DNA from: Candidatus Micrarchaeia archaeon
Lineage (GTDB): Archaea > Micrarchaeota > Micrarchaeia > CAILAH01
Length of the DNA: 64,000 nucleotides
Assembly: GCA_038874595.1 (NCBI GenBank)
Contig: JAVZCB010000001.1
Coordinates: forward strand, 1-64,000
Reading direction: 5' to 3'
The notes beneath the pieces are model-generated. The model did no database searches and was not told the origin of the DNA. It saw only the letters and a program-made list of their open reading frames with translations. A program made the position numbers and the translations under genes. Within the stretch, counting starts at the first letter, position 1. Each line of letters starts with the position of its first letter. Below, one piece after another: positions 27,277-36,851 of the stretch.

Positions 27277-27377
27277 TAGCCCCGCCAGGATTCGAACCTG
27301 GGTCTATGGGTTTCCTTTGTGGGGTAGCCCTCCCTCACTTCAAAGCCCACCATCCTTGGCCACTAGACGACGGGGCT
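27277..27377 (-). tRNA. tRNA-Gln(UUG) with 28-nt intron at 37/38 (27312-27339)
   Basis: AGCCCCG/CGGGGCU acceptor, GGUUCGAAUCC T-arm, BHB helix CUUU/AAGG. Confidence 0.92.
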
Positions 27378-33038: not shown

Positions 33039-33228
33039 TGCCAAGGGGGGGATTTTCAGGACGCTAGTTATAAGCCCCTTTGAACCCCCGACTTCCAGAT
33101 TGCCCAGAAACGCCTTATATATCATCGCACGTTTAAAGTGCTCATAACTCACAAGACACGAAAGGGACCGGAGCCCCCAGCCCTTTTCTTATGAGTCTGG
33201 CGCTCTAGCCAGGCTGAGCTACCTTGGC
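33039..33228 (-). tRNA. Elongator tRNA-Met(CAU) with two introns (37/38: 33101-33189; 59/60: 33053-33078)
   Basis: GCCAAGG/CCUUGGC acceptor, CCAGA/UCUGG anticodon stem, BHB helices CUCA/UGGG and UUCA/UGAA. Confidence 0.9.
33119..33156 (-). ncRNA. Intron-encoded K-turn (D'/C'-type) guide element antisense to the host pre-tRNA anticodon
   Basis: UCUUGUGAGUU-AUGA-GCAC(loop)GUGC-GAU-GA; guide pairs with GACUCAUA|AGA; N+5 position is C34. Confidence 0.65.
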
Positions 33229-36708: not shown

Positions 36709-36851
36709 AGCGGGGTAGGGCAGCCTGGAGTGCCCGCCGGGCTCATAGCAGGGAGGTATTCCGTTCCCTGTAACCCTGGTAGTTTTTGTTTCGTAAAAGT
36801 AAACTACCTGGAGAAACCCGGAGGCCGTTGGTTCAAATCCAACCCCCGCTA
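36709..36851 (+). tRNA. Initiator tRNA-Met(CAU) with 68-nt intron at 37/38 (36748-36815)
   Basis: A1-U72 AGCGGGG/CCCCGCU acceptor, three G-C pairs in the anticodon stem. Confidence 0.93.

Follow-up and report, generated by a model that had tools for sequence, protein, structure and literature searches.

The window, by which we mean the whole 64,000-nt stretch of DNA analysed here, contains an elongator tRNA-Met(CAU) gene that is interrupted by two introns (Table 1). The exons, assigned by hand reading, were joined in silico and gave a perfect cloverleaf, which ARAGORN labels as tRNA-Met(CAU). The G1-C72 pair and the CCAGA/UCUGG anticodon stem identify it as the elongator and not the initiator tRNA. 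In its unspliced form, the gene was missed by both programs applied to the window: ARAGORN reported no tRNA, and the sole Rfam match was a tRNA-Gln at 27277-27377. In genomes with genes that are invisible to ARAGORN and Rfam in this way, tRNA-Met would score as missing. The genome comprises 918 kb on 7 contigs with 44% G+C and an estimated completeness of 93.5%, and many of its tRNA genes carry introns. An initiator-type tRNA-Met with A1-U72 and GGG/CCC anticodon-stem pairs lies at 36709-36851 on the plus strand of the window; it also has an intervening sequence and is mislabelled by ARAGORN as tRNA-Ser(aga) with a 68-nt intron.

Table 1 Features of the elongator tRNA-Met gene, its intron-borne module, and the related tRNA-Leu(UAA) gene. 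Features are window positions unless a contig is named
Feature	Position	Strand	Remark
Elongator tRNA-Met(CAU) gene, two introns	33228-33039	minus	hand reading
tRNA-Met exons	33228-33190, 33100-33079, 33052-33039	minus	hand reading
Target strand, G30-A37 plus intron bases 1-3, GACUCAUA|AGA	33197-33187	minus	wobble C34 = 33193
Intron 1, 89 nt	33189-33101	minus	canonical 37/38 position
5' hairpin insertion, GAAA-GGGCUGG...CCGGUCC-UUUC	33188-33160	minus	from folds
Guide UCUUGUGAGUU, 11 nt	33156-33146	minus	directly 5' of AUGA
Box D-like AUGA	33145-33142	minus	non-bulged K-turn strand
K-turn C-stem hairpin, GCAC-UUUAAAC-GUGC	33141-33127	minus	GCAC 33141-33138, GUGC 33130-33127
Box C-like strand	33126-33119	minus	bulge GAU 33126-33124, GA 33123-33122, then UAU
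"Anti-guide" stretch UAUAUAAGGCG after box C	33121-33111	minus	target mimic, from folds
Intron 2, 26 nt	33078-33053	minus	T-loop 59/60; outside the guide module
tRNA-Leu(UAA) gene, 115-nt intron with sister module	G000:C1:122396-122597 (locus L100:1470-1671)	plus	outside the window

The splice motif of intron 1 is a bulge-helix-bulge. Its central helix is formed by CUCA (tRNA positions 32-35) and UGGG (33106-33103) and its inner helix by GAAA and UUUC, and it is exactly the minimum-energy fold given by ViennaRNA. A CUGA at the end of intron 2 was considered as a box D and rejected, as it is explained by the UUCA/UGAA helix of that intron's own splice motif.

In canonical archaeal box C/D sRNAs, box C (RUGAUGA) and box D (CUGA) form a K-turn with a 3-nt bulge and tandem G.A pairs. 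The guide is about 10-12 nt long and lies directly upstream of box D, and the target nucleotide is opposite its fifth base. Intron 1 has a comparable arrangement. The orientation is that of a K-turn, since the non-bulged strand ends in GA before a canonical stem and the other strand consists of the stem, a 3-nt bulge and GA. The guide forms 11 pairs, 2 of them G-U, with a target strand that crosses the exon-intron junction, and C34 is opposite the fifth guide base upstream of AUGA (N+5), as checked by hand and by script. An earlier sequence-only reading had described the 89-nt intron, AUGA, the GCAC/GUGC stem, the GAU bulge and the following GA, together with an 11-mer that pairs across the 5' exon-intron junction with two G-U pairs and places C34 at the fifth base. 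All elements were found on the minus strand where it had put them, its duplex held pair by pair, and its register was correct. It had also seen no second canonical C/D pair in the intron, and we found none: neither a second RUGAUGA/CUGA pair nor a second K-turn is present in intron 1 or in the T-loop intron. A second box pair is likewise absent from the introns of compact relatives, which can be as short as about 33-45 nt. No box D follows the stretch behind box C, and this stretch does not complement tRNA positions 38-44. Compared with a canonical sRNA, the intron has the K-turn boxes (with the AUGA variant) and a guide in the N+5 register and lacks the second, C'/D' motif. As in the self-guiding pre-tRNA-Trp type, the guide is located in the anticodon-loop intron of its own target, and its duplex crosses the junction. 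Mononucleotide shuffling of the intron produced a same-register guide adjoining a K-turn-like hairpin in 52 of 300,000 cases (1.7e-4 per intron). A chance origin is ruled out by the conservation of the module in relatives.

In a pattern scan that covered one genome for each prokaryotic species, 58 loci matched. Candidatus Micrarchaeota (DPANN) account for 48 of them, all tRNA-Met genes, among them those in the complete genomes of Fermentimicrarchaeum limneticum and ARM-1, and the other 10 are chance matches in bacteria. The module is common to 51 distinct Micrarchaeota tRNA-Met introns from many families. In all 51, a guide ending in UGAGU(U/G/A) is followed by NNGA, a hairpin whose first pairs are G-C and C-G, a 3-nt bulge and GA, and the N+5 register is constant; the parse itself demanded these shared features, and so did, for a large part of the introns, the collecting pattern, which fixed the register and the first two stem pairs. 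Box D reads AUGA in 32 introns, CUGA in 9, AGGA in 4, UUGA in 3 and otherwise in 3, its GA being fixed by the parse. The choice of bulge was left free by the parse and is GAU in 37 introns and AAU in 14. Beyond its first two pairs, the stem varies in a compensatory manner. Base pair 3 occurs as four Watson-Crick types and is paired in 40 of 47 introns, base pair 4 occurs as six pair types and is paired in 26 of 26, and none of 5000 shuffles matched the paired count at either position.

A second sample, 40 relatives gathered by plain similarity to the gene, is free of the bias of the collecting pattern. An intron-bearing elongator tRNA-Met was readable at 19 loci in this sample (our own included); 16 carry the module and 3 carry none. 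One same-family relative among the 16, which is outside the 51-intron set, has a UGU bulge. Insertions are found at three places only, namely the target-guide loop, the K-turn hairpin loop and the region 3' of box C, a pattern expected from functional constraint on the rest of the module. Where our gene has its 5' hairpin insertion, compact relatives have a 3-nt loop. The sequence-only reading had proposed that relatives' tRNA-Met introns be aligned as a check. The comparison of the parsed introns shows a conserved guide and a covarying K-turn stem, and the conservation across 51 introns together with this covariation strengthens its view of a single-K-turn, single-guide RNA, which our analysis supports. 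Covariation at the tRNA-Met junction is not taken as support, the test being uninformative for this tRNA: past A38, the pairing extends into the intron by about 2 bp, no better than with random partners. The GGCG of the stretch after box C could pair with tRNA positions 25-28, and GGCG/GGCA at this place tracks CGCC/UGCC at positions 25-28 in 17 of 21 sequences, but the 17 fits trace to a single phylogenetic split. A TATA-like motif after box C was also rejected as an internal promoter, its spacing to the 3' exon being different in Met and Leu introns.

A sister module is found in the 115-nt intron of the tRNA-Leu(UAA) gene. It consists of CGUCUUAAGUU, AUGA, the hairpin CCUCU-GAAA-AGAGG, GAU and GA, and U34 is at N+5. 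By exact pattern, it occurs in 7 of 9 genomes of the family (our own included) and in none of the other sampled families. Its hairpin shows compensatory changes (CCUCU/AGAGG, CUCCC/GGGAG, UCCCA/UGGGA and CCCUC/GAGGG). At its 5' end, the guide changes in concert with the first bases of the intron, UGCC occurring with GGCA and UAUU with AAUA. This covariation shows the unspliced precursor to be the pairing partner of the Leu(UAA) guide.

A separate sR-tMet, for which the sequence-only reading had suggested a search, was not found in the genome (93.5% complete), where a scan for complements next to NNGA gave 62 matches, none with a box C, against 55 in the reversed genome. Generic genome scans for a K-turn hairpin with a nearby complement performed no better than the reversed-genome control (329, 266 and 106 matches against 371, 198 and 74), and their matches within tRNAs were confined to Met and Leu(UAA). 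The match at C2:18866 was discarded as a guide; it is the acceptor stem of a tRNA-Glu with a T-loop intron. This tRNA-Glu(UUC) gene (G000:C2:18755-18880, plus strand) contains a T-loop intron of about 47 nt. No convincing rRNA target emerged for the tRNA-Met intron guide, the best candidate being a 10/11 match with G-U at the target base, in a region unmatched by the relatives' guides. The genome also contains two canonical two-guide box C/D sRNAs, at C7:1508 (plus) and near C3:132707 (C3:~132600-132740, minus). In the latter, a long D'-C' hairpin forms a K-turn, not a K-loop, like the intron modules. One guide of the C7 sRNA pairs 12/12 with 23S rRNA (gene position 2535), a score no higher than that of the best shuffled guide.

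Next, we consider the proteins of the box C/D particle. The sequence-only reading would have been given up if the genome had no fibrillarin or Nop5. Both are encoded, as is L7Ae (99 bits), and fibrillarin is full length (264 bits; C2:173837-174484), but Nop5 is found without its fibrillarin-binding domain. The single Nop5 homologue, of 343 aa (G000:C6:21935-22966, minus strand; locus L033:1216-2247), matches the 417-position aNOP56 model over positions 127-409 only, and its alignment to S. solfataricus Nop5 (3id5) is limited to residues 127-377. Coiled-coil and C-terminal domain are preserved and an Arg/Gly/Glu-rich tail is added, while the fibrillarin-binding N-terminal domain is absent. The same holds across the class: in all 40 sampled Micrarchaeia relatives, the Nop5 match is limited to ~100-410 of the 417-position aNOP56 model. 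Coding sequence for the N-terminal domain was found neither upstream of nop5 nor beside the fibrillarin gene, which is on another contig and not adjacent to nop5. A genome-wide search with NF011121 and PF08156 gave no such domain either, but since PF08156 fails on the archaeal controls, this negative carries no information. The truncation weakens the assumption that fibrillarin is delivered in the textbook manner.

The guide:target pairing was compared with the splice motif by folding. The splice-competent bulge-helix-bulge fold and the guide:target fold are nearly equal in predicted energy (-35.9 versus -34.8 kcal/mol). The guide:target fold buries the 5' splice site. As both folds use the same anticodon bases, they cannot coexist, and this mutual exclusion suggests that methylation comes first and splicing second. 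The cis guide:target hairpin is capped by the 5' hairpin insertion, whose outer pairs also serve as the h' helix of the splice motif. In compact relatives, a single hairpin is formed by the target ACUCAUAAGC and the guide (GCUU.AUGAGU) around a 3-nt loop. The minimum-energy fold of the anticodon arm plus intron has the C34:guide pair in 32 of 50 relatives. In the free intron of our gene, the probability that the guide is unpaired is near 0, and it is predicted to pair with the target mimic UAUAUAAGGC downstream of box C. Such sequestration speaks against a simple mode of action in trans in this family, unless the RNA is remodelled by proteins.

On the sequence evidence, intron 1 is probably a single-K-turn self-guide for Cm34 of its own elongator pre-tRNA-Met, that is, a minimal guide of the box C/D type with one K-turn in place of two. 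L7Ae would be expected to bind the K-turn made of AUGA, the GCAC/GUGC stem, the GAU bulge and GA. The 11 bases 5' of AUGA would pair with the anticodon loop and the first intron bases and thereby place C34 opposite the fifth guide base, the position that a box C/D particle 2'-O-methylates, and the product would be Cm34. The substrate is most likely the unspliced pre-tRNA folded on itself, in which methylation would be followed by refolding and then by splicing. It is mainly the truncation of Nop5, here and in all 40 relatives, that keeps us from a firmer wording of the methylation reading. Two further points against it are that there is one motif only and that box D is mostly AUGA, not CUGA. 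In the archaeal systems studied, methylation is efficient only when symmetric C/D and C'/D' motifs are juxtaposed (Tran 2003 and Rashid 2003, cited by PMC3608112).

A rival reading is that the K-turn serves a purpose other than methylation. It could recruit L7Ae, perhaps with the short Nop5, for the chaperoning of the pre-tRNA, for the timing or licensing of splicing by masking of the splice site, or for stabilization of the excised intron, and the complementarity to the anticodon would then be part of the intron's structure. The lack of a fibrillarin dock on Nop5 throughout the class fits such a role, as do the mutually exclusive folds and the high stability of the intron RNA in Nanoarchaeum equitans; tRNA introns often pair with the anticodon, and many K-turns bound by L7Ae are not part of guides (PMC5539422). 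However, the splice motif pairs a different segment, UGGG, with the anticodon loop, so that the guide is a second, separate complement. Moreover, the distance between guide and box brings position 34 to N+5 in both tRNA-Met and tRNA-Leu(UAA), the same positions are ribose-methylated by box C/D guides in other archaea (PMC7994747, PMC2584109), and fibrillarin has been kept at full length. We regard a purely non-methylating role as quite unlikely. Still further from our reading is the idea that the module has no function now, being either what is left of a decaying intron sRNA that once had two guides or a chance likeness. The single box pair, the non-canonical box D and the mobile-looking hairpins that invade the intron would suit a relic. 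The module is nevertheless found in 51 distinct introns of many families with compensatory stem changes and a fixed register, it arises by chance at only 1.7e-4 per intron, and insertions are tolerated at loops only, which makes this explanation highly improbable.

A different question is whether a true Cm34 guide acts in trans only. Excised, possibly circularised introns could pair up on a Nop5 dimer, which would restore the two-K-turn symmetry, and could methylate other pre-tRNA-Met molecules or mature tRNA-Met. The coiled-coil region of Nop5 is kept, and the nine exon bases 30-38 alone can pair with the guide. Furthermore, the N. equitans intron RNA occurs free and in abundance, and in vitro the Haloferax guide from the tRNA-Trp intron works in trans (Singh 2004, summarised in PMC4090602 and PMC2584109). 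Action in trans only is nonetheless unlikely in our view. The target-guide hairpin of compact relatives, with its 3-nt loop, strongly favours an intramolecular duplex, and for the free intron of our gene, folding predicts that the target mimic further downstream ties up the whole guide. In addition, the Leu(UAA) guides covary with intron bases, so that at least the unspliced precursor is a substrate. We therefore keep self-guidance of the pre-tRNA as the preferred reading.

Box C/D guides within introns have a precedent in tRNA-Trp. Clouet d'Orval is said to have described, in 2001, a box C/D guide in the euryarchaeal pre-tRNA-Trp intron. Like the module described here, the guide of Haloferax volcanii and Pyrococcus (sR50) resides in the 37/38 intron of its own target and has C34 at N+5, and its duplex extends across the exon-intron junction in competition with the splice motif. 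In contrast, it is a full C/D plus C'/D' RNA with two guides (Cm34 and Um39), whereas the intron studied here has one K-turn and one guide and belongs to another tRNA. For Cm34 of elongator tRNA-Met, a stand-alone guide was reportedly found by Joardar in 2011. Pyrococcus sR49 and Haloferax sR-tMet have the same target as our module, and the Haloferax substrate is also an intron-containing precursor (PMC2584109), but they are encoded by separate genes and act in trans, whereas the module here is inside the intron. According to Grosjean et al. (2008), the guide for tRNA-Met is not located in an intron (PMC2584109), and in reviews up to 2024, the tRNA-Trp intron is the sole intron-borne guide named (PMC4090602, PMC11408192).

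The closest relative is an RNA of N. equitans. Randau (2012; Genome Biol 13:R63, PMC3491384) found that a stable RNA is formed by the 66-nt intron of its elongator tRNA-Met. This RNA has a single box D, a single variant box C and a GC hairpin and was termed "potentially" a C/D sRNA (PMC3491384); it is represented by 31,500 reads, and its target is listed as "no prediction" (PMC3491384, supplementary table). We parsed the published sequence as CUAUGAGCU, CUGA, CCC-GAAA-GGG, GAU and GA. In this parse, the C of CUCAUA, which is C34, is paired with the fifth base 5' of CUGA. The host tRNA, the class of intron position, the order of guide, box D, GC hairpin and box C, and the single box pair are the same as in our intron. 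The N. equitans RNA differs in that it comes from another DPANN phylum, has a canonical CUGA, is 66 nt long and is abundant by RNA-seq, while ours is known from sequence alone. The sequence-only reading had set the intronic location against the separate Pyrococcus and Haloferax guides, but the N. equitans intron RNA is a precedent for it. RNAs of this kind are thus already known, but the self-target and the occurrence throughout another phylum seem not to have been described in the literature searched. We would place the element, as a phylum-wide member, in the class whose first example came from N. equitans, and regard it as a single-K-turn relative of the tRNA-Trp intron guide. What is added here is the target, its own C34, the covariation, the Leu(UAA) sister module, the competition between nearly isoenergetic folds and the caveat on Nop5.

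A single K-turn is also a feature of half-mer box C/D RNAs, which assemble with L7Ae, Nop5 and fibrillarin in crystals according to PMC6239191 and PMC3608112. The synthetic half-mers of Xue 2010, as summarised in PMC6239191, likewise place one K-turn and one guide on the target. They are laboratory constructs that were combined with full-length Nop5, whereas the module here is natural, lies in cis with its target, and belongs to a lineage whose Nop5 has no N-terminal domain.

If the module works as proposed, a tRNA intron would gain a concrete function beyond tRNA-Trp, the sole textbook case, and the abundant N. equitans RNA that was published without a target would be assigned one. It would also provide a natural half-mer guide with which the need for two K-turns in box C/D methylation could be probed. 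Taken with the loss of Nop5's fibrillarin dock throughout the lineage, the module raises a testable question about enzyme assembly in an archaeon with a reduced genome. More tentatively, Micrarchaeota, and probably other DPANN archaea, might run stripped-down cis guides of the methylate-then-splice kind, with one K-turn, in Met and Leu(UAA) and with a Nop5 that lacks the fibrillarin dock; we see this generalization as possible, though on the doubtful side. If it is true, site-specific 2'-O-methylation can do without two-K-turn symmetry and without the N-terminal domain of Nop5, and the guide is the reason why these tRNA introns are kept.

Several other tRNA introns of the genome contain repeated sequences. 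Among the repeated hairpin elements is a CACUGAUGG...CCUCGUGUGGUCUACACC unit that the Leu(UAA) intron shares with the Cys(GCA) intron, where it is present twice, and the 386-nt Val(CAC) intron has three tandem copies of a repeat unit. The tRNA loci with shared repeats are all outside the window (G000:C1:122396-122597, G000:C3:128966-129245 and G000:C1:143491-143951). These repeated hairpins look like mobile or amplifying intron modules. The 16S rRNA match (G000:C3:81098-83186, minus strand) spans 2089 nt against a model of 1478 positions, which corresponds to one or more insertions totalling about 600 nt, possibly rRNA introns.
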